This document shows positions 6,612-26,474 of a stretch of DNA of 34,669 bases, piece by piece; the first letter of the stretch is position 1; each line of letters opens with the position of its first letter. The translations under genes were made by a program, and so were the position numbers. A model generated the notes under the pieces. It did not search any database. It worked only from the letters and a program-made list of their open reading frames with translations, and was not told where the DNA came from. Location: UHGV virus genome UHGV-0090561, one strand, 5' to 3'. Origin of the DNA: a virus.

Positions 6612-7402
6612 TTACGCCAGTTGTACGGACACGAACTCATCAGGGTCAGCCAGCAGCATCAGCGGTGCTGACTGAATCATGGTGAACTCACGCGCAGGAT
6701 CGCCGGTGGTCACCCAGTTTTTCGGGTAACGGGCAGAGGCGTTAATGCCTTCGCGCTGTGCGTCCGCATCCTGAATGCAGCCATAGGTGCGCAGACCGCG
6801 TGCCTGAGTGTTCCCCAGCACCATCGTGTTGTCCGGCAGGAAGTTCTTTTTGACGCCGTTTTCCACGTACTGCCCGGAATACACGACGATGGCCACATCG
6901 CCATACATCCCCTTATAGGACACCGCTTTACCCAGGTCTTTCACCGCTGTCTCCAGCTCGGAATGAGAGCCGCGACGGGTATCCAGCTTCTCCTTGACGG
7001 CTTTGAAGGAACGGAACAGCGCCCAGCCTTTCGGATCAAACACGATGATATTCACTACACCGCTGGCGTTCAGCGCGTAGGCTTCGATATCGTCGGTCGG
7101 GTCATACGTGGACTTGTCACGCTTGCTCCACTCCGTGCCACCGGACTGTGTGATGTTGTTCGCCGCACTGCGGCCCATATCCACCTCAACCGGATCGAAG
7201 GCTTCACCGGTCATGGTGTATTTGCCCTTAAGCACGGCAGAAACTGCCTGCATCTCTTCGACCTGGGCAATGGCCAGCTCTTCGTCACGCATGTTCTGCA
7301 TGATGATGCGACGGCGACGGTAAGCCGGGTCCGCCAGATTCTGTGGATCTTCATCCGGCAGGCGACGCAGGGTCATCTGCGGATTCACCTCATGCTTGGG
7401 CT
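6612..7402 (-). pseudogene. E: Major capsid protein E, 3' fragment (codons from PKHEVNPQ to end), separated from its 5' part by the insertion
   Basis: Translation ...PKHEVNPQMTLRRLPDEDPQNLADPAYRRRR...VSVQLA matches the C-terminal ~260 aa of lambda gpE; no start codon, and a TAG lies immediately upstream at the junction. Confidence 0.93.
7393..7402. repeat. Left copy of 10-bp direct repeat TGCTTGGGCT (putative att core / target duplication)
   Basis: Identical 10-mer at 18591-18600; both copies lie inside E coding sequence (AAG CCC AAG CA on the coding strand). Confidence 0.8.
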
Positions 7403-8440
7403 ACATGAGTCAATGACGTAAGTATGTGAATGATATAAGAGGAAAAATAGAGCATAATCTCTACCAGAATGACTATGTTGCAATACATGCTGCAATACAC
7501 AGAAATGAATTTACATGCTGTTCGATTATTAAGTTTCATAGCCGAGTTGCAGATCAGCAACTCACCCACCAGCCCAGATAATTTCATTTTCACACTGGAG
7601 GACTCCTTGAAATCAAGGAATCATAATCCTGCCATGTCATCATTCCGGCCTTCTCAGATTTGAGGTGTGCGGAAAAAATAAACGCTATTAAGCAGCTATG
7701 TGGGTACTGCACTTTTTGGGTAGTGCAACTATCCAGCTTCCTCAAATTAAGGATTGTGGAAAAATCAATGAGTCAGGTTTATTCCCCCGTTCTCCCCCAA
7801 TGGGGGTTTTCGAAAGAATCAATGGGTTAGGCCATCGTGCAAATTTGCACTCTGCCAGCCAACGCAATTTTGCGTTATCAGTCCTCAGATGTGAGGGATG
7901 TAGCCAGCTTTTCCCCCAGTGGGGATTATCCAGTTACCGACGGTTTAACCGCCTGTGCCAGCACAACGAAAGAATTTGCGGGTAGCTTTAAACTACTCAC
8001 AACATCCCATCTTACAGGCCGTGCCTTTCTAACTTTTTACAATGCAATAAGTCAGGTAACGCTATGCGTTCCACCGTGTACACCGCGCCAGTAAAACCCC
8101 CGGATTCGTGGTTTTCCTGAATATCAGGAATCTACCGCCGTAACCGCTCCTGCTTCTTCCACTGGTAAGTGTTTTTCGCGCTCTCCCTTCGCTACATGGA
8201 ACGGCGACGATATGGCAACAACTCCAGAACTCTGGTGCGTATGTTGCACATATCCACGCCGTTAAGCTCGATACCGTCACGGCGCATAACCTCAAGCACC
8301 ACACGCGCGTAATTTTCAGCGGTCGTGCTGTCCGACTGCGTTGTCTCCTGTTTGCCTGCTGCCTGATAGATATCACTGGAAACGTGCCGGATAAGTTCCA
8401 GCAGCAGAAAGGCGAGTTGCTACCGCGCAATTGTTGAACA

Positions 8441-8647
8441 AAAAACGAGAAAGGAAACGACACTGTCCAAAAAACACGTTTTCAGCACCTGCTGTTTCCT
8501 TTCTTTTTAGGGGGTATTTATAATAAAAACATTAAGTTACGGCAAAGAAGAACGGAAACGCCTTAAACCGGAAAATTTTCATAAATAGCGAAAACCCGCG
8601 CGCCTTCCGCCCCGTAACGCTCCGGATCACCGGAAAGGACCCGCTCA
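8441..8647. other. cos site of the satellite (cosN/cosB-like), near-identical to the prophage cos
   Basis: About 200 bp aligns almost base-for-base with 24798-25000, including the inverted GAAAGGAAACGAC / CGTTTCCTTTC terminase R-site-like repeats and the segment GCGAAAACCCGCGCGCCTTCCGCCCCGTAACG. Confidence 0.75.
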
Positions 8648-8730
8648 AAAAAAGCGGCCACTGACGTGATTGTTTATGTTCCATGAGCGACAAAACCGCC
8701 CGGAGGCGGTTTCACATAAAACATTTTGCA

Positions 8731-9378
8731 TCAGCGACCAATCACCACAACCTGACCACCATCACCTTCATCTGCCGTGCTGATCTCCTGAGATACCACT
8801 CGCGACCCCACACGCATTTCACCGTACAGAACGGGCAGAACATTGCCCTGGGCAACCATGTTATCCAGTGACGAGAAATACGTGTTCTGCTTACCGTTAT
8901 CCGTTGTCTGTGTGCGGGGAGTTCTGGCTTTCGGTGCCAGCATCTGCGCCACACCACCGAGCACCATACTGGCACCCGCACTATACATTCCTGTAATTGC
9001 TGCCGCTCCTAGCCAACCAGCGGGGTTCCACCACGCCACCGCAATCAGCGCCGCCCCCAGCACGGTCTGAAACACACCGCCACTTTTAGCGCCAGCAAGA
9101 CGCGGTACGATGTGGATCACAGCACCATTCGCCAGCGGCTCATTAAGACGGGCTGATAATTCATTTTCGCCTGCATCCCGCCCGGCAATCCGTACCTGAT
9201 ACCAACCGTCGCTCAGTTTCTGACGAAACGACGGTAGCTGTGTGGACAGAGCTCGGATGGCTTCAGCCCCCGTTTTTACACGAAGGTCGATGCGGTGGCC
9301 GAATCGTTGCAAATCCCCGTAAAGGCAGATTCGTGCCATGCCCGATGACGCCAGAGGGAGTGTGTGCGTCGTTGCCAT
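8731..9378 (-). CDS. Tail assembly protein I-like protein (lambda gpI family)
   Basis: 215-aa ORF MATTHTLPLASSGMARICLYGDLQRFG...QGNVLPVLYGEMRVGSRVVSQEISTADEGDGGQVVVIGR resembles lambda gpI as I recall it (N and C termini conserved, middle divergent); Shine-Dalgarno upstream. Confidence 0.65.
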   Translation of the reverse strand: MATTHTLPLASSGMARICLYGDLQRFGHRIDLRVKTGAEAIRALSTQLPSFRQKLSDGWYQVRIAGRDAGENELSARLNEPLANGAVIHIVPRLAGAKSGGVFQTVLGAALIAVAWWNPAGWLGAAAITGMYSAGASMVLGGVAQMLAPKARTPRTQTTDNGKQNTYFSSLDNMVAQGNVLPVLYGEMRVGSRVVSQEISTADEGDGGQVVVIGR

Positions 9379-9418
9379 TTGTCGGTATACCTCTCTCGTT
9401 TGCTCTGTTGTTCAGAAA

Positions 9419-9802
9419 TTAGCAGATCAACTTATAGCGTCCATTCCGAGCATTGCGGCGTACACGTTCAATCTTGAGGCATAGCGCCGCATCTGGCTTT
9501 TTTGGGACTGGTACACGGCAATATTCAGAAGCGCGAGGAATATTATTTATCCAGTCAATCACTTCGCTTAAATACCAGGCCTTACGCCCTTCCGTAACCT
9601 GCACACGCTCCGGGAACTCTCCACGGGCCTCAAGGTTTAGCAGTGTACGACGACTCAGGGTTGTAAGTTCCATTACCTGATTCATATCAACAAGACGCTC
9701 GCTTAAACGCATTTTGTCAGCGATAGCTTTTAATTCCTCTACAGCTGGATTTGGGTACATAATTTCGGCAATTGGCTTAAGGTCATTGTAATGATTCTGC
9801 AT
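9419..9802 (-). CDS. AlpA-like helix-turn-helix protein with N-terminal extension
   Basis: 127-aa ORF with GGGGGA Shine-Dalgarno; C-terminal half TTLSRRTLLNLEARGEFPERVQVTEGRKAWYLSEVIDWI resembles the AlpA/excisionase-type HTH. Confidence 0.6.
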   Translation of the reverse strand: MQNHYNDLKPIAEIMYPNPAVEELKAIADKMRLSERLVDMNQVMELTTLSRRTLLNLEARGEFPERVQVTEGRKAWYLSEVIDWINNIPRASEYCRVPVPKKPDAALCLKIERVRRNARNGRYKLIC

Positions 9803-9813
9803 TGTATCCCCCT

Positions 9814-10155
9814 TTACACACGAGCCAGCGGCTGAACAGAAATACCTGAGCCAACAAACGCTGCAACCTTTACTGACAGTTCTTTTACAGACTCAGGCCA
9901 GTTCAGAGCATCAACATTTAAGACACCTGTCTTATAGACCTGAGCCTGTGTTTTTTTCGCGGTGTCGATTTGTACAGCGGATACATAAACCGCTTTACCT
10001 ACGCTCGTACCATCCCATACCACCAGTGCACCTGTTGCATCTTCCTGCATCAGTGGCGTAAATGCAGGAATTACCCCTTTATTAGCTGAAAATATCCCCA
10101 GCGTAGTAACCAGTGCTTCAGTGCCAGCCATGAGTTCAGTGTAATGAGTAGCCAT
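9814..10155 (-). CDS. Head decoration protein, lambda gpD family (divergent)
   Basis: 113 aa; aligns by eye with lambda gpD (FTPLMQEDATGALVVWDGTSVG vs [22 protein letters not shown]; AFVGSGISV vs [10 protein letters not shown]); strong Shine-Dalgarno AAGGGGGAG. Confidence 0.7.
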   Translation of the reverse strand: MATHYTELMAGTEALVTTLGIFSANKGVIPAFTPLMQEDATGALVVWDGTSVGKAVYVSAVQIDTAKKTQAQVYKTGVLNVDALNWPESVKELSVKVAAFVGSGISVQPLARV

Positions 10156-10164
10156 TGCTCCCCC

Positions 10165-11205
10165 TTAGCCAATGCGAACGGTAACAAAACGATTGATGCG
10201 AGCCGGTATTGGCTGTGGTGCTGAATGTGTCTGCACATATTCAATAGCCGGATCACCAGGCACAATATAGTTTTTCGGTGCAAGTTCGGCTTTAGTCAGC
10301 CCCATTCGGATTAGCTCCGGGTCCTGAATACCGCCATAGGCGACAATCCCCTGAAGAGCCGTATTGCCAAGCACCATCAAATCAGGATCAAGGAAATGTT
10401 TTTCAGTTCCGTCCTCGTCGGTATAACGCCCGCTGTAAACAACAATCGCAACATCGCCCATATACCCTTTAAAACTCACCGAATCACCAAGGTCTTTAAG
10501 GGCCGTTTCCAGTTCGGAATTAGAACCACGACGGGTATCCAGAGCCTCTTTTATCGCTCTGAATGAACGGTATTTCTTCCATACATTACCGCCCATAATG
10601 ATGATATTAGTGACGCCCTCACTAAATTCTGCGTAGTTCTCAATATCATCATTTGGATCAAAAGTTTCTTTATCCTTACCTGACCACTCAGCACCGCCAG
10701 ACTGAGTGATGATATTTTGTGGTTTAATATTCCAGTCCAGCTCATAACGTTCAATACCATCGCCCTCAATGATATTTTTCCCCGTTGTGATTGCCTGAAC
10801 GGCAAGCCATTCAATACGTGCACGAATAGCTTTAGCTTGATTTACAATCGCCTGTTTAACTTTAATATTACGCGCCCCAAAAGCATTGTATTGCTCAGGT
10901 GATACACCAGCAGGGCGCACAGCTAACTTATTTGGATCAATGCTGCTTTTCGGCTTCATATAGCCTGGACGAATTGTTTTTGATTCGTACCCTTCGTCAC
11001 GTGAAACTTTACTACCCACCATAGGAGAACAAAACGCTGCAATTGGGATATTTGGATCGTCGATTGTATCAAGAATAATATCGCGCGATTCAAACATTAC
11101 CGAGCGAGTAAAAAACAAACGGGTAAACAACGCATTTAGTTGTTTTTGTACATCTACAGCATTAACCACCTGTACAAGCTGGGTAGGCGAATATAAATCA
11201 ACCAT
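10165..11205 (-). CDS. Major capsid protein, lambda gpE family (divergent satellite copy)
   Basis: About 346 aa from the ATG with AAGAGG Shine-Dalgarno; central block NIITQSGGAEWSGKDKETFDPNDDIENYA...AIKEALDTRRGSNSELETALKDLG...GDVAIVVYSG is clearly homologous to lambda gpE but far more diverged than the prophage copy. Confidence 0.85.
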   Translation of the reverse strand: MVDLYSPTQLVQVVNAVDVQKQLNALFTRLFFTRSVMFESRDIILDTIDDPNIPIAAFCSPMVGSKVSRDEGYESKTIRPGYMKPKSSIDPNKLAVRPAGVSPEQYNAFGARNIKVKQAIVNQAKAIRARIEWLAVQAITTGKNIIEGDGIERYELDWNIKPQNIITQSGGAEWSGKDKETFDPNDDIENYAEFSEGVTNIIIMGGNVWKKYRSFRAIKEALDTRRGSNSELETALKDLGDSVSFKGYMGDVAIVVYSGRYTDEDGTEKHFLDPDLMVLGNTALQGIVAYGGIQDPELIRMGLTKAELAPKNYIVPGDPAIEYVQTHSAPQPIPARINRFVTVRIG

Positions 11206-11422
11206 ACGCATCCTCTTTGCATTCATTAAAAATAATTGTGGATATATGCTATCACCGATATTTGTCATGCGAATACATGCAACCGAGTGCAATGTTGTAT
11301 AAAGTTTTGGGATGACAACTTCAGCGCGGATAATTAGTGTTAATATCTTCACTCCCTTTGGTCGGGATTTATGTAGCATGCCGGAAAATTTATTTTTTTC
11401 CGGCCTTTTTTATTGGCAATAT

Positions 11423-11872
11423 TTAAAACGGAATATCATCTCCCCATTGCTCATTATCTCCCACTGGTGGATGGCTTCCTTGCTGATCTGCCTGTTGTTT
11501 TGCTCTGTTCAGTGCGTCAGTAGCCTGCCCCTGTTGGCCTTTTTTGCCGCCCGGTCGCACCGTTCGCGCACTGATTACGCTGTCTGCGATAACCTGCCAG
11601 CCCTGCCGCGTTTCACCGTTCTGTCCAGTCCACTGACTCACCTGCATGTTACCCGCCACGCTCAGGAGTTCGCCTTTGTGATGCTTTGCCAGCGCGTCGG
11701 CTTGTCTGCCAAACGCCAGAACAGATAACCACATCGTCGCCTGACCGTCATCCGACTGGCTGCAGGGCAGTGATACCGCCATACGCGCCAGCGTCATGGG
11801 GGTGCCCTTGCTGGTCTGTTTTGTCTGCGGGGCGTCCACCAGCCGCCCGTAAGCTGCTATTTGCGCCGTCAT
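11423..11872 (-). CDS. ssb: Single-stranded DNA-binding protein
   Basis: 149-aa ORF with OB-fold-like N-terminus, Gly/Gln-rich linker and the characteristic acidic tail ending DDIPF. Confidence 0.85.
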   Translation of the reverse strand: MTAQIAAYGRLVDAPQTKQTSKGTPMTLARMAVSLPCSQSDDGQATMWLSVLAFGRQADALAKHHKGELLSVAGNMQVSQWTGQNGETRQGWQVIADSVISARTVRPGGKKGQQGQATDALNRAKQQADQQGSHPPVGDNEQWGDDIPF

Positions 11873-12126
11873 GCTGCCTGCTCTCCGGACTTAATATTGA
11901 TGGTTGTCACTTCCTCCGCTTCGGCAATCTCCCGTTCGGTCAGCGTGGCAAAGTTTGCAGCCGCCGTTGTCATGAATGCGCTTATCAGTTCGGGATGTGC
12001 TTTCGCGTATCCTTCCCCGGCGTTGCGGTCTATTGCCTTAATCGCCACCCTTAGCCAGTGTTCAGCCATATCAAGGGCGCGGTAATGTGGCTTTATATGT
12101 TTGTTCAGTTTTCCTGATGTGTGCAT
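11869..12126 (-). CDS. Hypothetical protein (satellite, between ori and ssb)
   Basis: 85-aa ORF whose stop overlaps the ssb start (operon-like); no recognisable family. Confidence 0.45.
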   Translation of the reverse strand: MHTSGKLNKHIKPHYRALDMAEHWLRVAIKAIDRNAGEGYAKAHPELISAFMTTAAANFATLTEREIAEAEEVTTINIKSGEQAA

Positions 12127-12169
12127 TTTTATTTTTACCCCCTCGTTTAAAAAGTTTTTTGTGCACCAC

Positions 12170-12404
12170 CACCTTGTCTACCTTGTCTACCTGATTAGTT
12201 ATCAGGCCAGTAATGGCGCGGGTTTCAGGGAGGTAGACAGCCCCAAATAGCTGTCTACCTCATCTCTACCCGTATCCTTACCTGTCTACAAAAATGGGTA
12301 GATAAGGTAGATAACAGGTAGACAGTGAAAAATAGTTATCTACCTGCATTAATACATTGAAATAAAAGTATTTTCTTTCAGTCAGGTAGACAAGGTAGAT
12401 AACC
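12170..12404. repeat. Iteron array (putative satellite replication origin)
   Basis: About 10 copies of GGTAGA(C/T)A / its reverse complement TGTCTACC in both orientations, immediately downstream of the primase-helicase gene. Confidence 0.8.
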
Positions 12405-12415
12405 ATTGCCATTTT

Positions 12416-14167
12416 TTATAAAAACGCATCGCAATCATCAGTAGTCGTTGCGTTGGTCTGCGTGACTCCCTTAACTTTTCGCGTAATATATTCATATCCG
12501 TAAACTTTCGCCGCTGACCTCATAGCCTTTCCGAACTCATTCACGCTCAAACATTTCCCCTTTCCTGTGTATGCCATGAAGGCCATATAGACACGGTAAA
12601 GGCTGTTTCTGGTCGTGTACTTCACGGAGTCACCACCACCGCCCATCATTAGCCCACGAGCTTCCTCCAGAAACTCAAGCGCCGCGCAAAGCTCAACAAC
12701 TGGATCCGTTTGCTGCTTTATTGCCAGAGCTTCATCACCGTCACGCTGTTCCAGTAGTAAAGCCCTTGCCTTTTCAGGGTCAGCAAAGTTAGCCAGCAAG
12801 CGGCGGATAATTACGGGGATTTCTGCCGCTATCTTTTCCGGTAATTCCTTGTCTTTTTCGTCCTCCCTTACAATGTTGTCGAACCGGAAAATCACCCGAC
12901 GGCGTGACACACCTCCGGCCCGTTCGGTAAAGATCATCGGGTCGTTATTGGTTGCCAGTACCACCGCCCTTATTATCGTCGTGAATCGCTTCTCATATTT
13001 CGGATTGATTTCAACGGGATCGCCTCCCGTGATTTTCTTGATGCCCGTGCCTTCCCCCGTATATTTCGGCTGATCGGCAAGGACGATAAGACGACTCCCG
13101 ACAACCTGCGCGCGCCCTCCTGCATCATCGAGTGATGTCATCTCTGCGCTTACGGTGTTCTGTTTGCCTGCAAGCAGGGTGGCAATATGGGTAAATGTAC
13201 TCTTACCGCTTCCCCCGTCTCCGGTGGCCTCAATGAACATCTGCCAGTCGTAGCGGTTCGCCATAATCATGTATAACGCGGCACATATACGCATCATCTT
13301 GCGCGGGTCTTTTCCTGCAGCATGTTCAAGCCATTTATGGAAATTTGGCGCATTATCGCGGATGTTTTCCCCTGCTACTGGTGGCGTGTACTCAATACCA
13401 TTGTGCGTGGTGCTCCAGTGCTCCGGCGAGTGCGGAGAAAATTCCCCCGTTTTCAGATTAAGCACACCATTAGTGAACGGTAGCAAATCACCGGACGGCT
13501 CCCCCATGGGGGCTGCAATAACTTTTAACGCTTCCACGGCGTTATTGATTACACGTTTGCTGAACGTGGCCCTGTGCTCTGAATAGATCGCCACCATTTC
13601 GCGGCTCAGCTCCATTGTGCTGACCGGACACCATACCCCGCCGCGCCATACGTGGACGATTTCACTTTCTGCATGAACACACACACCATCAAAGCGATCG
13701 GCAAGTAGTTGTGCACGTTCACTGTCTGCCATCTGTGAAAGTTGCGCCTTTTGCTTCGTCGGAAGATTAAGCACCAGACTTTCCCCACGCTCGCATTCCT
13801 CTTTGAGTCGCGGCAACTGGTCGGATAAATCCACTGGGCTGGTGTCAGTAATCCCCGCGTATTCGTGTACGGTCTTCACTCCAGCCACAGCCAGTAACGT
13901 AACAATCTGCGTCATGCTGTGCTCTGTGATATGTCCTGCGCGGTAAACACGCACACACTGACGATCTTCATCAATGATCCGGTAATCGGTGATATTTTTC
14001 AGTTGCTCATCAGCCAGCACGACAGGCGGCACATCGTCGGCGGCAATATGTTTACCCGCCCATTCCTGCCACTCTTTCGCATGGCTCCACGCATCACTAC
14101 CTGCAAAGATGATTACCTCTGTCAGTCTGTCGCGTGGCTGTTTTTTTAAGTTCGGTGCCAGTTTCAT
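12416..14167 (-). CDS. Primase-helicase (P4-family primase C-terminal / SF3 helicase-like replication initiator)
   Basis: 583-aa ORF with Walker A GDGGSGKST and downstream NTPase-like motifs typical of P4 alpha-type / PICI Pri-Rep proteins; followed by iterons. Confidence 0.8.
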   Translation of the reverse strand: MKLAPNLKKQPRDRLTEVIIFAGSDAWSHAKEWQEWAGKHIAADDVPPVVLADEQLKNITDYRIIDEDRQCVRVYRAGHITEHSMTQIVTLLAVAGVKTVHEYAGITDTSPVDLSDQLPRLKEECERGESLVLNLPTKQKAQLSQMADSERAQLLADRFDGVCVHAESEIVHVWRGGVWCPVSTMELSREMVAIYSEHRATFSKRVINNAVEALKVIAAPMGEPSGDLLPFTNGVLNLKTGEFSPHSPEHWSTTHNGIEYTPPVAGENIRDNAPNFHKWLEHAAGKDPRKMMRICAALYMIMANRYDWQMFIEATGDGGSGKSTFTHIATLLAGKQNTVSAEMTSLDDAGGRAQVVGSRLIVLADQPKYTGEGTGIKKITGGDPVEINPKYEKRFTTIIRAVVLATNNDPMIFTERAGGVSRRRVIFRFDNIVREDEKDKELPEKIAAEIPVIIRRLLANFADPEKARALLLEQRDGDEALAIKQQTDPVVELCAALEFLEEARGLMMGGGGDSVKYTTRNSLYRVYMAFMAYTGKGKCLSVNEFGKAMRSAAKVYGYEYITRKVKGVTQTNATTTDDCDAFL

Positions 14168-14463
14168 TTTTTGCCCCTGAATGCGTTAATCATGCTTTTC
14201 ATTTTCTGGATGTTTCCCCGCGCTTTTTCCCTGCTGGTGGGCTTACTGCGGGGTGCGGCATATACCAGGGAAAAATCACGCCGGAACTGATAAACAGGCA
14301 TCACACAGTCATAGCTATACCCCTCACGGCGGTAAGTGATGCGCCGTTCTGCCACGCCTTTAATCGTTACCGTGCCGCCGTATTTATCGCGGTAAATATC
14401 GCCGTTCATAAATTCAGGCCGAGCGGGGCCGCTGGCAATAAAGCCAGAATTTTTCATTTCCAT
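14164..14463 (-). CDS. Hypothetical protein (upstream of primase, ATGA overlap)
   Basis: 99-aa ORF translationally coupled to the primase start; no recognised family. Confidence 0.5.
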   Translation of the reverse strand: MEMKNSGFIASGPARPEFMNGDIYRDKYGGTVTIKGVAERRITYRREGYSYDCVMPVYQFRRDFSLVYAAPRSKPTSREKARGNIQKMKSMINAFRGKK

Positions 14464-14480
14464 ATTATTTATTCTTCGAC

Positions 14481-14702
14481 TTAACTCGACTTATTTGATA
14501 GCAGGGCACTATTTATTGCGTCATTGAGTTTTTCTGCTGCTTCATCAATAAGTGACAACAGGCCATAAGCAATATTTGCATCTTCATTGTCATTTATGCA
14601 ATCAAGCCACATATTTAATATTGCTTTTGCTGAATTATTTAAAGTTAATGAACTCTCTGCACATGCTAACAATTTAAAAAAGACTTCCCGTTCTGTATTC
14701 AT
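14481..14702 (-). CDS. Hypothetical small protein
   Basis: 73-aa ORF in a tightly packed co-directional array; AT-rich. Confidence 0.4.
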   Translation of the reverse strand: MNTEREVFFKLLACAESSLTLNNSAKAILNMWLDCINDNEDANIAYGLLSLIDEAAEKLNDAINSALLSNKSS

Positions 14703-14894
14703 TTAATCCCCCACCAGCTTACTTTCTTCCTCAATCAGGAAACTAGCGACACTTCCCGAAAGGCGCGCCAGTAGGCTCGCCAGCGCGGATATATCAGCAT
14801 CTGTAATTTTGTTCGGGTATACCTCAAGAAGGCGGCAAATAATTTCTGTTTGGTGCGCACGTTCAGCGGCTTCGTGTAATGTGATTTCCTGCAT
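14703..14894 (-). CDS. Hypothetical small protein
   Basis: 63-aa ORF abutting its neighbours without gaps. Confidence 0.4.
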   Translation of the reverse strand: MQEITLHEAAERAHQTEIICRLLEVYPNKITDADISALASLLARLSGSVASFLIEEESKLVGD

Positions 14895-15079
14895 TAATGC
14901 ACCTCTTTTAATTCATACACTGCTGAAATAATGACTTGTGATAAGCCATATTCTGATGATTCGCTTCTCACCGCAGCAATAGCCGTCTGAACATTAACAG
15001 CCTTCACGTTCTGAGTGATACCAATTGTGTGGCCTCGTGGGTTAACAGCTCGGGCAAATACACGGAAGGTTTTAAGCAC
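14894..15079 (-). CDS. Hypothetical small protein
   Basis: 61-aa ORF overlapping its neighbours by a few nt. Confidence 0.4.
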   Translation of the reverse strand: MLKTFRVFARAVNPRGHTIGITQNVKAVNVQTAIAAVRSESSEYGLSQVIISAVYELKEVH

Positions 15080-15275
15080 GGCACACCTCCTGACGAATAC
15101 GGGCAGCGAATACCATCACGCAGCCAGTTGGGGATTGCTGGCGGGCTTCCTGTTCGCTGATGGCCTCGATGGTAATCATGCGCGGTTGTGCCGTACTCAA
15201 GGCGATAAAACGCCAGATGTATTTATTCAGGTTGTGCGAGTTCCGCCCTTGCGGGTGTGTGGTATGATTTCTCAT
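15072..15275 (-). CDS. Hypothetical small protein (first gene of the leftward satellite operon)
   Basis: About 67 aa from the internal ATG preceded by a GAGG Shine-Dalgarno; the upstream part of the track ORF is not supported. Confidence 0.4.
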   Translation of the reverse strand: MRNHTTHPQGRNSHNLNKYIWRFIALSTAQPRMITIEAISEQEARQQSPTGCVMVFAARIRQEVCRA

Positions 15276-15474
15276 AGCTACCTCGATACTGTTGCTATCG
15301 TTGGTGGTTAGAAGCCCGTTGGTGTTCCTAGCACCTTCGGGCTTTGCTTTTTTAAGTGCCCCCGTGTTAAGGTGGTCACCTAACAATGAAAAGGCTAATT
15401 CAATAGGTGGTCACTTGTCAACGATCAAACGCGATAAAAGTCCTAAGGGTGATGGGCAATCTCCACAATTCAGA

Positions 15475-15606
15475 ATGCGAATTTCTCCAGAGCTAAAAGA
15501 GCAATTCGACAAAGAAGCGCAGAGCGACGGCATAAGCCTAGCCAACTGGCTTAAAGAATTAGGGCGCAAAGAGCTGCTACGGCGCGGTATTGAACCAAAA
15601 GGATAA
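15475..15606 (+). CDS. Ribbon-helix-helix (Arc/CopG-like) DNA-binding protein, putative
   Basis: 43-aa product MRISPELKEQFDKEAQSDGISLANWLKELGRKELLRRGIEPKG fits the RHH pattern; weak Shine-Dalgarno, so the start is uncertain. Confidence 0.45.
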   Translation: MRISPELKEQFDKEAQSDGISLANWLKELGRKELLRRGIEPKG

Positions 15607-15633
15607 GAATAATTGAAGTCAAGGAGCTAACAC

Positions 15634-15990
15634 ATGAAATACGAATTCTTCGCAACAAGTAGCAGTAGTTTGGATGTATACATAGTCACTGTATCAAACG
15701 ATTCTGGCTCGCTAATCATGACTTGTAATTGTCCAGCAGGAAGTAAAGGTATTCTATGTAGACACCGTAAAGCTTTAATTACCGGAAAAATCCGCGGTAT
15801 ATTCACTCCCCCAAGAAGGAATAATCCTGAAAAATTACAAGAAGCTATAAATTTAATAGCCACATATGGCATAGATAAAACATTAAAGTTGTACACTGAT
15901 GAGTTAGAACGAGCAGAACAGACTTGGATAAGTGTTCGCGATAATTTGAGAGCAATGATAAACGCTCTTGTTGAACCACCTAAATATTGA
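15634..15990 (+). CDS. SWIM zinc-finger protein, small
   Basis: 118-aa ORF with AAGGAG Shine-Dalgarno; motif CNCPAGSKGILCRH matches the SWIM CxCxnCxH signature; followed by an intrinsic terminator. Confidence 0.7.
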   Translation: MKYEFFATSSSSLDVYIVTVSNDSGSLIMTCNCPAGSKGILCRHRKALITGKIRGIFTPPRRNNPEKLQEAINLIATYGIDKTLKLYTDELERAEQTWISVRDNLRAMINALVEPPKY

Positions 15991-16056
15991 ACTGTTCACA
16001 TTGCCTATCAGGCGATAACCTCGTATTCTGATTAAGGCTAACTATATACTCACATT

Positions 16057-16080
16057 GGCGACCAATTCTGGTCGCCTTTA
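16057..16080 (+). terminator. Rho-independent terminator after the SWIM gene
   Basis: GGCGACCA-attc-TGGTCGCC hairpin followed by TTTA; position hand-counted. Confidence 0.6.
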
Positions 16081-16121
16081 TCCACCATTTTTATAATATC
16101 ATAGATTAAAAGTGTTAATCC

Positions 16122-16952
16122 TTACCCCCTGAATGGAATTGATGAGGATTTAATTTCCACAGAACTAAATCCTCTTGAATCCAAGAACATTTTTATACCA
16201 GCCTCAATAAAATCATAATCGTTTGTCGGGCCAATTGTAATGCTTTTAATTGGTAACTTTCTATTATCTTTATTATCAATGATGATATAAGGGATGATCC
16301 CATTATTATTTATTCTGAAGTGCACATCTGGCATTTGCATCCACGGAGTAAATACCAATCTAAATTCATTCTCTTCGATAAAACTAGGATGTTTAAAAAA
16401 TGGGATGTATTTAGATATAAATTGATACGTAGAGACCATTGTTACAAAATGATCATTCATTTCTTTAATATTAATACCATTACAAGAAAAAAACTCCCCC
16501 AACTCCTTACTCATCTTAGTAATATCGTTATTATTTGAATATATAACATCATGTGCAACACAATTTAAATAAATATTTTGAGAAAAGCTCACAAGTTCAT
16601 CCGCATCAAACTCAATGCAAACACCCTGTTTATTTCCGTAACCTCTCCACTGACTTAACTTATCGTTTTCCTTACAAAAAGAGATGCTATAAACATGTTT
16701 ATCAATCCCTTTTTCTTTTTGTAACCTCCCTTTCTCATACATGTCAAGAGACTTGAGCAAAATAGTTTTCTTATCTTTTGGAATGATATTATCATCAACT
16801 ATTTTAATTGTATTTCGAAAGCATTCACATCCATGGTTAGACTCCTCTTTATCATTTAAGAAATATATGTTTGTAGCCCATAAAGAATTAGAGTCTAATA
16901 TACCTTTCAAACCAAAAAGATCTGTATAATGAAATATAGCCACAATGCCCAC
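16122..16952 (-). CDS. DUF2971-like protein (satellite cargo, function unknown)
   Basis: 276-aa ORF, markedly AT-rich versus its neighbours; N-terminal FHYTD...YFLNDKEE resembles the DUF2971 motif as I recall it (not verified by HMM); GTG start 7 nt after the alpA stop. Confidence 0.55.
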   Translation of the reverse strand: MGIVAIFHYTDLFGLKGILDSNSLWATNIYFLNDKEESNHGCECFRNTIKIVDDNIIPKDKKTILLKSLDMYEKGRLQKEKGIDKHVYSISFCKENDKLSQWRGYGNKQGVCIEFDADELVSFSQNIYLNCVAHDVIYSNNNDITKMSKELGEFFSCNGINIKEMNDHFVTMVSTYQFISKYIPFFKHPSFIEENEFRLVFTPWMQMPDVHFRINNNGIIPYIIIDNKDNRKLPIKSITIGPTNDYDFIEAGIKMFLDSRGFSSVEIKSSSIPFRG

Positions 16953-16959
16953 CTAATAG

Positions 16960-17190
16960 TTAAGTTGTTTCCCACTCACCTCGAATCCATGCCTGCACTT
17001 CTGAAAGACGATATGCAACAGCAGTGGAACCAATCTTGATCCGCTTAGGAAATTTTCCTTCCTTCTCCAGCTTCCAGCGTGTGCTGTTCGCAAGAGTGGT
17101 TAGCTCCCGACATTCTTTCTCACGGATCATTCGGTCAATGTTAGGAATGTACTCCAGACCCTTTTTATCAACAATTGCCATTTTTTTCAT
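16960..17190 (-). CDS. alpA: AlpA-family transcriptional regulator / excisionase-like protein
   Basis: 76-aa ORF immediately downstream of int; ...RELTTLANSTRWKLEKEGKFPKRIKIGSTAVAYRLSEVQAWI is the AlpA HTH pattern. Confidence 0.8.
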   Translation of the reverse strand: MKKMAIVDKKGLEYIPNIDRMIREKECRELTTLANSTRWKLEKEGKFPKRIKIGSTAVAYRLSEVQAWIRGEWETT

Positions 17191-17191
17191 G

Positions 17192-18427
17192 CTAACCAGC
17201 CTTTTGTTTGAGGATTGTCACTTTTGAATCAGCAGCTGCGATGCTATTGAGATATGTAGTCCAGAGTTCCAGAGCATCCAGTTTTTTAGCCATAAACTTA
17301 CTCCGGTTGTAAACACCTGCCACGCCAGGTAGCGCATGGCCTAACAGTTGTTCTACTACATAAAATTCAACACCGAGATCACTTAGATGAGTAGATAGCG
17401 TTCTTCTAAGGTCGTGTAGTGACCATTGTTTTTCATGGCCCAAACGTTTACCGATTTTCCCCCCAATCTTGCTTACGCTTTCTCTAATTCGCAGACTTCC
17501 CAGCACATAACCAGTATGTTTTGTCTCTTCGTGAACATCCGTTACCCACTGTCGTAGAATTTCAGGTACTGGTCTGACGATTTCAACACCAGTTTTTGAG
17601 TGATCTTTTGGCACAGTCCAAACCCAACTTTCGAGATCCCATTCGCTCCATTCTGATAATCGGGCTTCACTCATTCGACATCCAAATACTGTACAAAGCA
17701 CAAACATTTTTCGCGTGTATTCAGACATTAGTTTTAAATCAGGCTCGACAAAAATTGCCTTCCAGAGCTGGCCCAGTTCGGCTTCATCCAGAACCCGATC
17801 CCGCTTACCTGCAATCTGCCCCACATCACTCATGCGCAAATCCTTTAAAGCATCACACGTCGCGTACTGGCGTACCCGACAAAAACGAAGAGCTAATTTA
17901 GTGTCAGAAAAAACATACGCCGCCATAACTGGTGCATTACGTTTAATTCGGTCAAAACAGTCCAGCCATTCATATAGGTGAGTGTCATTTACGGGCAAAT
18001 GACCGATATAGGGAAAGATATGCTTTCGAAATCTGCCAAGCGTTACAGCATGAGTTTTACGACGCACCTTACAGTAATTTTCATACCAGTAATTTAGTGC
18101 ATCCTCCACTGTGACCGGCTTTAAGCGTTCTTCAGCCTGAATCTTAATCTGGATACGCGGATCACGTTTGTCAGCCAACCAAGCACGGCACTCGTCGCGC
18201 TTTTCCCTTGCCTGTTTGAGTGACATATCAGGATATTTACCCAACGTTAGCCAGACCGGAGCAGCCCGGCCACCTGCTAACCTGTAGAAGAAAACAAAGC
18301 TCACAGCCCCCTTGGTACTCACACGAATAGAAAGCCCCTTTCCATCAGCAATGGTGATCTGCTTTTCTCTGGGTTTCCCCAGATATCCTTTAAGTGCTTT
18401 GTCGCTCAGTTTGTTCTCGCCAGCCAT
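17192..18427 (-). CDS. int: Tyrosine recombinase (phage integrase family)
   Basis: About 411 aa from the internal ATG (MAGENKLSDK...); C-terminal catalytic region with HDLRRT...LLGH...Y-type motifs; adjacent to the right junction and direct repeat. Confidence 0.88.
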   Translation of the reverse strand: MAGENKLSDKALKGYLGKPREKQITIADGKGLSIRVSTKGAVSFVFFYRLAGGRAAPVWLTLGKYPDMSLKQAREKRDECRAWLADKRDPRIQIKIQAEERLKPVTVEDALNYWYENYCKVRRKTHAVTLGRFRKHIFPYIGHLPVNDTHLYEWLDCFDRIKRNAPVMAAYVFSDTKLALRFCRVRQYATCDALKDLRMSDVGQIAGKRDRVLDEAELGQLWKAIFVEPDLKLMSEYTRKMFVLCTVFGCRMSEARLSEWSEWDLESWVWTVPKDHSKTGVEIVRPVPEILRQWVTDVHEETKHTGYVLGSLRIRESVSKIGGKIGKRLGHEKQWSLHDLRRTLSTHLSDLGVEFYVVEQLLGHALPGVAGVYNRSKFMAKKLDALELWTTYLNSIAAADSKVTILKQKAG

Positions 18428-18589
18428 TTTTAGCCCCAAAAAGCAATACAAGCTGCAATACAGAGATGATTGCAACACACAGATAACGAGGAAAATCCAG
18501 TGAAAGCGCCAGATAAACTTATTCTTTATTATCAAAAGATTAAGTGTAAAAACCAGCAACTACACGAAAGCCTCAGAAAGCCATGCTAA

Positions 18590-18835
18590 GTGCTTGGGCT
18601 TGACATATCCCGGTGTAAATTCAGAGGTGGAGCCGCCACGGGAGCGGATAACCTCACCGGAAACAATCGGCGAAACGTACAGCGCCATGTTTACCAGTCC
18701 CGGAATTTGTGAGAGATAGACTTTCTCCGTGGTGAAGGGATAGCTCTCACGGAAAAAGAGACGCAGAAACAGCGGATCAAACTTAAATTTCTTCTCATTT
18801 GCCGCCAGCAGCTGGGCGGTTGTGTACATCGACAT
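18590..18835 (-). pseudogene. E: Major capsid protein E, 5' fragment (first ~81 codons), reading into the insertion
   Basis: MSMYTTAQLLAANEKKFKFDPLFLRLFFRESYPFTTEKVYLSQIPGLVNMALYVSPIVSGEVIRSRGGSTSEFTPGYVKPKH matches the lambda gpE N-terminus, then diverges (LAWLSEAFV, stop) at the junction. Confidence 0.93.
18591..18600. repeat. Right copy of 10-bp direct repeat TGCTTGGGCT
   Basis: Identical to 7393-7402; lies at the codons KPKH of E. Confidence 0.8.
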
Positions 18836-18890
18836 AAAAAAATCCCGTAAAAAAAGCCGCACAGGCGGCCTTTAGTGATGAAGGGTAAGG

Positions 18891-25934: not shown

Positions 25935-26474
25935 TTATGATTTTTCGATCATTTTTATTACATTTTTGGCTGGCTTAATTTTCATCGTATCGCCGGTAGC
26001 AAGGTGCACAAGCAACATTAATTTGCGAACGTTGCCGCCCTGTTTCCATATCTTATTTTTCATATCTCTGGCCCAGTCGCCATTAGTATCATTTTGAATA
26101 AAGAAAAATGCATATTCGCCATGCTCAATTTTTTTTGGTAAATCGTCACCAAACCCACCCCCCAGAATCTGAAGTAGTGAGTTTTTTGTACCGAACGTCC
26201 ATGTTACTGAAGTTATAGTTGCGGTTTGAATGCCAACATTTGCAATGTTGATCGTAACTCCAAACGTGCTCACATTTTGGCCTGTGATGCCCCCAAGCGA
26301 TACTGTTCCTCTTAACTTCGGTCGAGGTCGACGGTTAGAAATATATAAAGTCAGGCATACTGCCATAAAGGTTGCAATGCCTGAAAACCACGTTCCTACC
26401 ATTGACCAAAAAGCCCATTCTGCTGTATTTCTAGTGGCAACCAATGATTCGTAAGCTATATAATCTGCGTTCAT
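25935..26474 (-). CDS. Hypothetical membrane protein (accessory gene)
   Basis: About 179 aa from the ATG with GAGGTG Shine-Dalgarno; predicted TM helix (WAFWSMVGTWFSGIATFMAVCLTLYI); AT-rich; upstream extension in the ORF track not supported. Confidence 0.55.
   Translation of the reverse strand: MNADYIAYESLVATRNTAEWAFWSMVGTWFSGIATFMAVCLTLYISNRRPRPKLRGTVSLGGITGQNVSTFGVTINIANVGIQTATITSVTWTFGTKNSLLQILGGGFGDDLPKKIEHGEYAFFFIQNDTNGDWARDMKNKIWKQGGNVRKLMLLVHLATGDTMKIKPAKNVIKMIEKS

Follow-up and report, generated by a model that had tools for sequence, protein, structure and literature searches.

The DNA considered here is the UHGV virus genome UHGV-0090561, a stretch of 34,669 bp that was analysed whole and is called the window. 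It holds a dense array of short repeats, or iterons, which is very likely the vegetative replication origin (ori) of a gram-negative phage-inducible chromosomal island (PICI). This island is itself embedded in a lambdoid prophage, and the array directly follows the gene for its replication initiator, Pri/Rep. The assignment is made by comparing sequences: with the known origin region of the PICI EcCICFT073, with the origin of satellite P4, and with related loci in which initiators and iterons change together.

An earlier note on this DNA had proposed a Pri-Rep-dependent origin of the PICI/P4 type. This is supported by the PICI context, by the homology of both Pri and the gap behind it to EcCICFT073, by an origin-binding domain like that of P4 alpha, and by the co-variation. 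A satellite origin was thus correctly recognised from sequence alone. For EcCICFT073, a feature of this kind has been described before, down to where it lies, how it is built and which iteron sequence it has; the embedded type of island has been published too.

The iteron array and its setting

The island genes are on the minus strand of the window, and the array was scanned on both strands. The motif GGTAGAYA has 10 exact matches in the window, where 1.00 would be expected (standard deviation 1.02). The expectation comes from 100 dinucleotide-preserving shuffles, of which the highest scoring held 6 matches and none reached 10. All exact matches are confined to the 227 bp between 12175 and 12401. 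The earlier note had counted roughly ten copies in both orientations at 12170-12404, which was accurate for motif, number and place.

Two further iterons have one mismatch each, at 12263-12270 (GGTAGAGA) and 12283-12290 (TGTAGACA), and sit at positions that hold iterons in relatives. This brings the array to 12 iterons, divided 7 to 5 by orientation. A scan of the whole window for AGGTAGAYA with at most one mismatch found no second cluster.

Tandem iterons are spaced 9-11 bp apart, which is about one helical turn. The array also holds two convergent pairs, one of which has perfect 12-bp arms (12230-12241 and 12250-12261, repeat I12), and its ends are linked by a 21-nt inverted repeat. The iterons are 8-9 bp long and occur in both orientations; direct repeats of the plasmid type, 17-22 bp long, are not what is found here. 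When the array was compared by eye with the DnaA-box consensus (TTATCCACA), no close match was seen, and no pattern scan for it was run.

The array fills a 289-bp gap between the stop codon of the initiator gene (12416-12418) and the start codon of the next gene (12124-12126). The earlier note placed it downstream of the primase-helicase gene, and it does lie directly 3' of that gene: the first iteron begins 14 nt past the stop codon, as befits an origin directly 3' of pri/rep. Given the strand of the genes, downstream here means towards lower coordinates.

The repeats are non-coding, as the earlier note supposed. In three related records, the gap carries no RefSeq annotation. Two open reading frames (ORFs) were considered as coding and rejected. 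The first is the only small ORF on the same strand as the genes (12278-12412, minus), which is unannotated in RefSeq and has lost its start codons in relatives. The second, on the plus strand (12101-12250), is also unannotated in RefSeq.

A scan of both strands from 11800 to 12800 gave neither a sigma-70-like promoter nor a terminator, after which a reading of the conserved blocks as sigma-70 promoters was dropped. Scanning the whole window for Rfam families and tRNAs gave no match; RNAs of the C4/isrK type, known from some PICIs, were undetected.

Table 1. Positions of the array, its parts and the features that surround it.
Feature	Position	Strand	Remarks
Complete iteron array, putative ori	12175..12401	-	12 copies of GGTAGAYA or its complement; motif scan, alignment to EcCICFT073 gap
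Module I	12297..12401	-	Nearest the initiator gene; layout of P4 ori type-1 repeats
Module I, first tandem iteron pair	12394-12401, 12385-12392	-	Minus-strand reading
Module I, A+T-rich spacer	12345..12384	.	Predicted DNA-unwinding element; 40 bp, 78% A+T against 50% in the window
Module I, inverted iteron	12337-12344		
Module I, three tandem iterons	12317-12324, 12306-12313, 12297-12304	-	
Module II	12175..12290	-	Inverted copy of the module I layout
Module II, three iterons	12283-12290, 12263-12270, 12252-12259		First two degenerate
Module II, inverted iteron	12232-12239		
Module II, terminal tandem pair	12184-12191, 12175-12182		
Conserved non-iteron block CTGAAACCCGCGCCATTACTGG	12207..12228	-	Inside module II spacer; near-invariant in 42 distinct GGTAGA-type arrays
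AAAAAACTTTTTAAAC element	12145..12160	-	Past the last iteron pair; also kept in lineages whose iterons differ
Initiator gene Pri/Rep, 583 aa	12416..14167	-	N-terminal alpha/beta domain, SF3 helicase core, C-terminal origin-binding domain
Coding region of winged-helix origin-binding domain, residues 487-578	12434..12709	-	1KA8 homology; N543/G546, predicted hairpin 562-571
First gene after the origin, 85 aa	11869..12126	-	phrog_1231, function unassigned; same position conserved in EcCICFT073
Island SSB gene	11423..11872	-	Part of replication module, two genes past the array; family searches
Whole helper-embedded PICI, ~11.2 kb	7393..18600	-	10-bp boundary repeat, split capsid gene

The array can be read as two modules (Table 1). 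The spacer of module I is the local A+T maximum, and it is bracketed by two sets of iterons (12385-12401 and 12297-12344), an arrangement typical of PICI origins of the EcCICFT073 type. Equivalent A+T-rich spacers are seen in the displayed loci of relatives. Module II has a spacer of the same 40 bp with 50% A+T, unlike the 78% of module I. In the 42 distinct arrays, the block inside this spacer equals the iteron cores in conservation, and the spacer bases next to it vary. It matches no promoter consensus. In the related locus L076, which has a different iteron, the block partly recurs.

An element of the AAAACTTTTT type follows the terminal iteron pair in the related loci L005, L069, L070 and L076, and also in both crr repeats of P4 (L008). 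Because it is present even where module II is not adjacent to the downstream gene, it looks like part of the origin, not of a ribosome-binding region.

Comparison with EcCICFT073, P4 and related loci

EcCICFT073 is a gram-negative PICI whose ori has been placed downstream of pri (Fillol-Salom et al. 2018, PMC6092414). With a clone of its pri-ori segment, a temperature-sensitive plasmid persisted at 44 degrees C, which it did not with a delta-pri clone (PMC6092414). In a published deletion primer, CTGTCTACCCTGTCTACC stands directly past the pri stop (PMC6092414).

The EcCICFT073 sequence used for comparison is NC_004431:1377749-1389210. Its Pri has 80% identity with the window initiator, and more than 90% beyond residue ~140, so nearly all of the divergence is in the first ~135 residues. 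The gaps behind the two genes, 288 bp in EcCICFT073 and 289 bp in the window, align over their full length with a mean column identity of 89%. Within this alignment the iteron cores are invariant, and most substitutions are in the spacers.

Counted from the stop codon, iterons are found in EcCICFT073 at offsets 17, 26, 73, 94, 105, 114, 146, 157, 178, 225 and 234. In the window these are 17, 26, 73, 94, 105, 114, 147, 158, 179, 226 and 235. The gene order is common to both as well: DUF4222, initiator, gap, 85-aa gene, SSB, capsid and decoration.

The two differ in their spacers, in one extra degenerate iteron that only the window has (12283-12290), and in where the islands are integrated. EcCICFT073 sits between ycfD (annotated roxA) and phoQ, and the window island in a prophage capsid gene. 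Because the Pri proteins are 80% identical, the gaps align over their full length and the iteron cores are invariant, the array is closely homologous to the DNA behind EcCICFT073 pri, where the ori has been placed.

Satellite P4 offers a second comparison. What is said here of its alpha protein and crr site rests on GenBank annotation, a PDB title and general knowledge. P4 alpha and the window initiator are homologous in the helicase core and in the C-terminal origin-binding domain. P4 ori (9310-9413 in P4) and module I both consist of two iterons, ~35-40 bp of A+T-rich DNA, one inverted iteron and three more iterons. The iterons themselves differ: the P4 type-1 repeat is TGTTCACC, and this is not the GGTAGAYA of the window. 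Three related loci, L004, L007 and L076, do have the GTGAACA/TGTTCAC core of the P4 type-1 repeat.

The P4 origin is bipartite, with ori and crr ~4.5 kb apart, whereas the window has one contiguous array. In both, the initiator gene is directly followed on its 3' side by an iteron site, which in P4 is crr. Module II shares with crr a spacer that starts with CTGAAA, a terminal tandem pair and an A/T-tract element, and it differs from the crr unit in the orientation of the inner iteron.

These shared features, and the fact that in P4 it is crr that directly follows the alpha stop with ori ~4.5 kb away, could mean that the array serves as no more than an auxiliary element in cis, equivalent to crr, and that replication truly initiates elsewhere in the island. 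This is very unlikely. Neither island nor window has another iteron cluster at up to one mismatch, module I reproduces the P4 ori layout including its A+T-rich spacer, and the EcCICFT073 pri-ori segment sufficed for plasmid replication.

A megablast search of GenBank phages with the replication module gave no match. Relatives were therefore drawn from E. coli genomes, GTDB genomes and IMG/VR. This led to 66 distinct downstream regions, taken from GTDB genomes, one phage record, P4 and IMG/VR. In 66 of 66, a short repeated k-mer dominates the region, and in the displayed loci of each lineage the iteron array falls within the first ~300 bp past the stop codon.

Most displayed arrays have a common layout. 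In gene orientation, the first half has two iterons, a ~38-bp A+T-rich spacer, one inverted iteron, ~12 bp and three iterons. The remainder has two or three inverted iterons, one iteron, a ~40-bp spacer, two inverted iterons and a AAAACTTTTT-like element. Iteron offsets in L004, L007 and L080 are those of the window and EcCICFT073, shifted by a constant.

The two halves are treated as modules because their order is swapped in L069-L072 and L076. In the first 330 bp past the initiator stop, these loci have a crr-like module, then a gap of ~80-90 bp, and then a module like P4 ori.

Conservation can also be put into numbers. Over the 42 GGTAGA-type arrays it is 0.81 for iterons and 0.75 for spacers when all columns are used, a difference that is understated since the global alignment is scrambled at offsets ~72-99, one subgroup having a different inner arrangement. 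For core columns the figure is 0.90.

The iteron itself varies between groups. GGTAGAYA is that of the window and EcCICFT073, and a sister group has GGTAGAnGG. The form GGTGAACA is found in P4, L004, L007 and L076, ATGAACAC in the L080 group, GGTATACA in the L078 group, and ATGAACA in L005.

Iteron plasmids such as pSC101, F, P1 and R6K likewise have repeats that bind the initiator, next to an A+T-rich unwinding element, and their specificity pairs define compatibility. Their iterons are direct repeats of ~17-22 bp, and a Rep protein of the RepA/Pi type, not a helicase, recruits the host's DnaA and DnaB. The window initiator by contrast is itself a helicase of superfamily 3 (SF3), and its iterons are 8-9 bp long and run in both orientations.

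The Rep-ori pair of the Staphylococcus aureus pathogenicity islands (SaPIs) is reportedly due to Ubeda et al. in 2007. Its relationship to the window is distant and covers the helicase core only, by way of a match to the 7OLA chain, named DNA primase by its depositors. The DNA-binding domain and the iterons differ, and SaPI hosts are gram-positive. The SaPI origin too follows its initiator gene immediately on the 3' side, and an A+T-rich region in it is flanked by two sets of short iterons (PMC6092414).

The initiator and its co-variation with the iterons

Initiators and iterons change together in these loci. Within the GGTAGA group, initiators that read NV-N-[DE]-F-G-KAM at window residues 540-549 pair with GGTAGAYA in 26 of 26 distinct arrays. 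Those that read NV-A-[DE]-F-S-KAM pair with GGTAGAnG, in 21 of 21. In a 71%-identical lineage, L069 (N) goes with GGTAGAtA and L070 (G) with GGGTAGAngg. A different site is involved in another clade, where the domain is otherwise near-identical: KTRGV is found with ATGAACAC, and K[N/A]RGM with GGTATACA. This segment aligns with a hairpin predicted in the window protein.

Such co-variation is the signature expected if the C-terminal domain reads the iterons, and it is predicted by none of the alternatives weighed in this text. As an observation in its own right, L079 and L088 have hybrid arrays in which iterons of the GTATAC type and the TGTTCAT type are mixed. These look like intermediates in a switch of specificity.

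The domain in question belongs to a recognisable protein. Pfam finds D5_N and DUF5906 in the initiator, with a sub-threshold C-terminal match to Pox_D5. NCBIfam finds only the helicase region of the P4-family 'primase_Cterm'. The SF3 core has a Walker A motif, GDGGSGKS, at residues 316-323, and a search of PDB sequences aligned the helicase core with 7OLA (E=7e-15).

For residues 487-578 the match is 1KA8 (E=3e-7), an entry that bears the title 'Crystal Structure of the Phage P4 Origin-Binding Domain'; the protein thus has the SF3 plus winged-helix build of P4. The same entry (1ka8_A) is the top fold match of the full-length initiator model, with probability 1.00.

That full-length prediction was made from a shallow alignment and has a pLDDT (predicted local distance difference test score) of 45. 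It is usable only for the N-terminal domain, and tentatively for C-terminal secondary structure. In this low-confidence model, a helix at 542-555 begins at the N543/G546 site, and a beta-hairpin or wing is predicted at 562-571. Both co-varying sites would then lie where a winged-helix domain reads DNA.

Co-variation also bears on what else the array might be. It could be mainly a transcriptional operator, through which the initiator or a helix-turn-helix protein of the island controls the ssb, capsid and decoration genes. The array is directly upstream of this gene cluster, and conservation extends to the cluster's ribosome-binding site. In addition, the convergent perfect 12-bp inverted repeats (I12) are operator-like, and iteron-binding plasmid initiators commonly autoregulate.

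An operator as the main role is nevertheless improbable, given the negative promoter and terminator scan. The motif also co-varies with the origin-binding domain of the initiator and not with any regulator, and the modules are intact in L069-L072 and L076 even though rearranged and away from the next gene. Finally, the homologous EcCICFT073 pri-ori segment contributes to replication. A regulatory side-role, next to that of an origin, is possible.

Short repeated protein-binding motifs in both orientations also typify cosB and att arms. The array might from this be a packaging or recombination site, bound by the terminase small subunit at cosB-like sites or by integrase at its arm sites. There is hardly any probability left for this: the att cores are ~5-6 kb away, and the motif changes with the initiator domain rather than with integrase or terminase. 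In EcCICFT073, moreover, the cos sites have been defined as cosQ/cosN/cosB-type and tested apart from the pri-ori construct. As for lambda cosN, a search gave one site with two mismatches at 26029, which is distant and no better than chance, and none near the array; the reading of the array as a packaging site was rejected.

The earlier note called the protein a primase-helicase, and of this label the helicase part holds. Helicase and origin-binding functions are supported by homology, and primase activity is not; 'primase-helicase' is best read as an annotation label. In P4 alpha and a Morganella homologue, the alignment shows a zinc-ribbon/Toprim primase part of ~350 residues that is without counterpart in the window initiator, which has an unrelated N-terminal domain of ~135 residues instead. 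The primase part of L005 (~350 residues) likewise has no counterpart.

The N-terminal domain itself spans residues 1-126 (window 13790-14167) and is predicted to be a small alpha/beta fold, with a pLDDT of 85.5 when modelled on its own. Pfam and NCBIfam searches with residues 1-160 found no family match. A PDB fold search with the model gave no match at E<=0.001; the best was the RNA-polymerase domain of DnaG, at E=0.013 and with poor superposition. The domain has IIFAGSD and YRAG motifs, which by eye we take to resemble the E-G and DxD..AG motifs of Toprim without the acidic residues. This is a hint that the domain may be a dead or degenerate Toprim remnant.

One further protein is of interest here. 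In L006, from Escherichia albertii, the start of the protein encoded at 6001-8136 matches window initiator residues ~1-335 with 43% identity, including the N-terminal domain, and the remainder is unmatched. At 8136-8300 this gene is followed by inverted sets of iterons particular to the locus (TGTCCCA / GGGACAAG), placed on either side of an A+T-rich spacer. The case points to a shuffling of domains between satellite initiators.

The embedded island and what its probable origin means

The island is delimited by a 10-bp repeat, TGCTTGGGCT, at 7393-7402 and 18591-18600, which are the att cores. It splits a lambda-E-like major capsid gene at ~codon 82/83. One piece of that gene (18560-18862) covers family positions 1-82, and the other (6612-7388) positions 84-340. 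The island also has a lambda-E-like capsid gene (10165-11379) and a decoration gene (9814-10155) of its own.

Its genes are those for integrase, an AlpA-like regulator, an Icd-like protein, a DUF4222 protein, initiator, SSB (single-stranded DNA-binding protein), capsid and decoration. With int, an alpA-like regulator, unidirectional genes, a size in the ~10-20 kb range and a specific att site, it has the features by which PICIs are known.

Annotated relatives have the same ~11-kb block between the two halves of the major capsid gene of a lambdoid prophage. The order there is integrase, helix-turn-helix regulator, accessory genes, Icd-like, DUF4222, 'DNA primase family protein', hypothetical gene, SSB, capsid, decoration and regulator.

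Such a configuration has been published as 11capE, a helper-embedded PICI. As far as the passages on Eco567.11capE go (Tommasini, Mageeney & Williams 2023, PMC10111431), that island and the window share the 10-bp att identity block and the presence of an own capsid gene. The same passages state that an 11capE-type island possesses an origin, and do not dissect it (PMC10111431). They also describe that the composite of prophage and island was replicated first, and the island excised afterwards (PMC10111431).

Some genes of the island stand apart from replication. A lambda-type tail assembly gene (phrog_32) at 8731-9378 (-), in the late zone, is an example of the late-gene capture that has been published. 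The variable zone holds genes for a repressor-like protein, phrog_6196, at 15072-15386 (-) and a DUF2971 protein at 16122-16952 (-). It also has an opposite-strand gene, phrog_13130, at 15634-15990 (+), where relatives have a SWIM zinc-finger or HicB gene. The genes of this zone are candidates for accessory or defence cargo.

The proposed working of the origin is as follows. On induction, the initiator, a P4-alpha-like SF3 helicase with a winged-helix C-terminus, would be made from the co-directional operon. Its C-terminal domain would bind the 8-9-bp GGTAGAYA iterons cooperatively, on one face of the helix, as tandem and convergent pairs. Occupancy of the iterons on both sides of the A+T-rich spacer of module I would melt this spacer, and the helicase ring would assemble on the opened DNA.

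Single strands would be coated by the island SSB, with synthesis by host DNA polymerase III and probably DnaG. Module II is probably a cis enhancer like P4 crr, acting through cooperative binding, looping or copy control. All of this, from binding, melting and helicase loading to the role of module II and the source of primers, is modelled on P4 alpha and SaPI Rep. Host DnaG is the simplest guess for the primers.

A wider picture can be sketched, though it is tentative and has somewhat less than an even chance of being right. The origin would be a fused two-part one that can be reshuffled, made of a melting module of the P4 ori type and an inverted, crr-like enhancer module. One or two winged-helix residues (N543/G546) would reset its code, leading to specificity groups that let related islands coexist. 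The N-terminal domain would perhaps be a dead Toprim, with priming ceded to host DnaG.

By homology, the island would replicate autonomously. Because the satellite sits inside its helper prophage, passive replication by that helper is possible as well. Taken to its end, this would make the array an inactive relic, with the island copied along with the prophage and the repeats kept by descent. Helper-embedded islands could in principle do without an origin of their own, and the 11capE composite does replicate ahead of excision.

A relic is highly improbable all the same. The initiator frame is intact and its core more than 90% identical to a functional protein, that of EcCICFT073. Iteron cores are conserved while spacers drift, which argues for purifying selection, and iterons and binding-domain residues change together, which would require ongoing function. 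The 3.1-kb replication module is also widespread: of 5,426 complete E. coli genomes, 325 contain at least 80% of its length.

Several points do weigh against an origin that is active in its own right. The function of the window copy rests on homology. In EcCICFT073, delta-ori colonies were 'significantly reduced', and abolition was not reported (PMC6092414). The order of events in the 11capE passages leaves the island origin's own share in vivo unproven (PMC10111431). Pfam, NCBIfam and the fold search detected no primase catalytic domain in the initiator that would account for priming. The model of its helicase and C-terminal parts is of low confidence, so that the co-varying residues are placed in helix and wing only tentatively. 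Distinct sequences, not independent evolutionary events, were counted for the co-variation; at least three switches, and probably only 3-4, have been sampled.

Some of this adds to what has been published. Three points were found neither in PMC6092414 nor in the 11capE passages of PMC10111431: that the layout explicitly matches that of P4 ori, that the array can be seen as two modules whose order is swapped in some loci, and that residues co-vary with bases. These increments make origin specificity testable and leave the overall picture unchanged. The comparison draws an explicit line from the origins of gram-negative PICIs to the layout of P4 ori, and it flags a protein that is annotated 'primase' and has no recognisable primase catalytic site.

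The co-variation map links N543/G546 with iteron positions 7-8, and in another clade it links wing residues. Origin specificity, and hence the incompatibility of co-resident islands, can with this be tested by mutagenesis, with GGTAGACA, GGTAGAGG and GGTGAACA as the iteron variants. For the embedded island itself, the origin is one reason to think that it can amplify itself after excision. This bears on the strength of its competition with the prophage whose capsid gene it interrupts.

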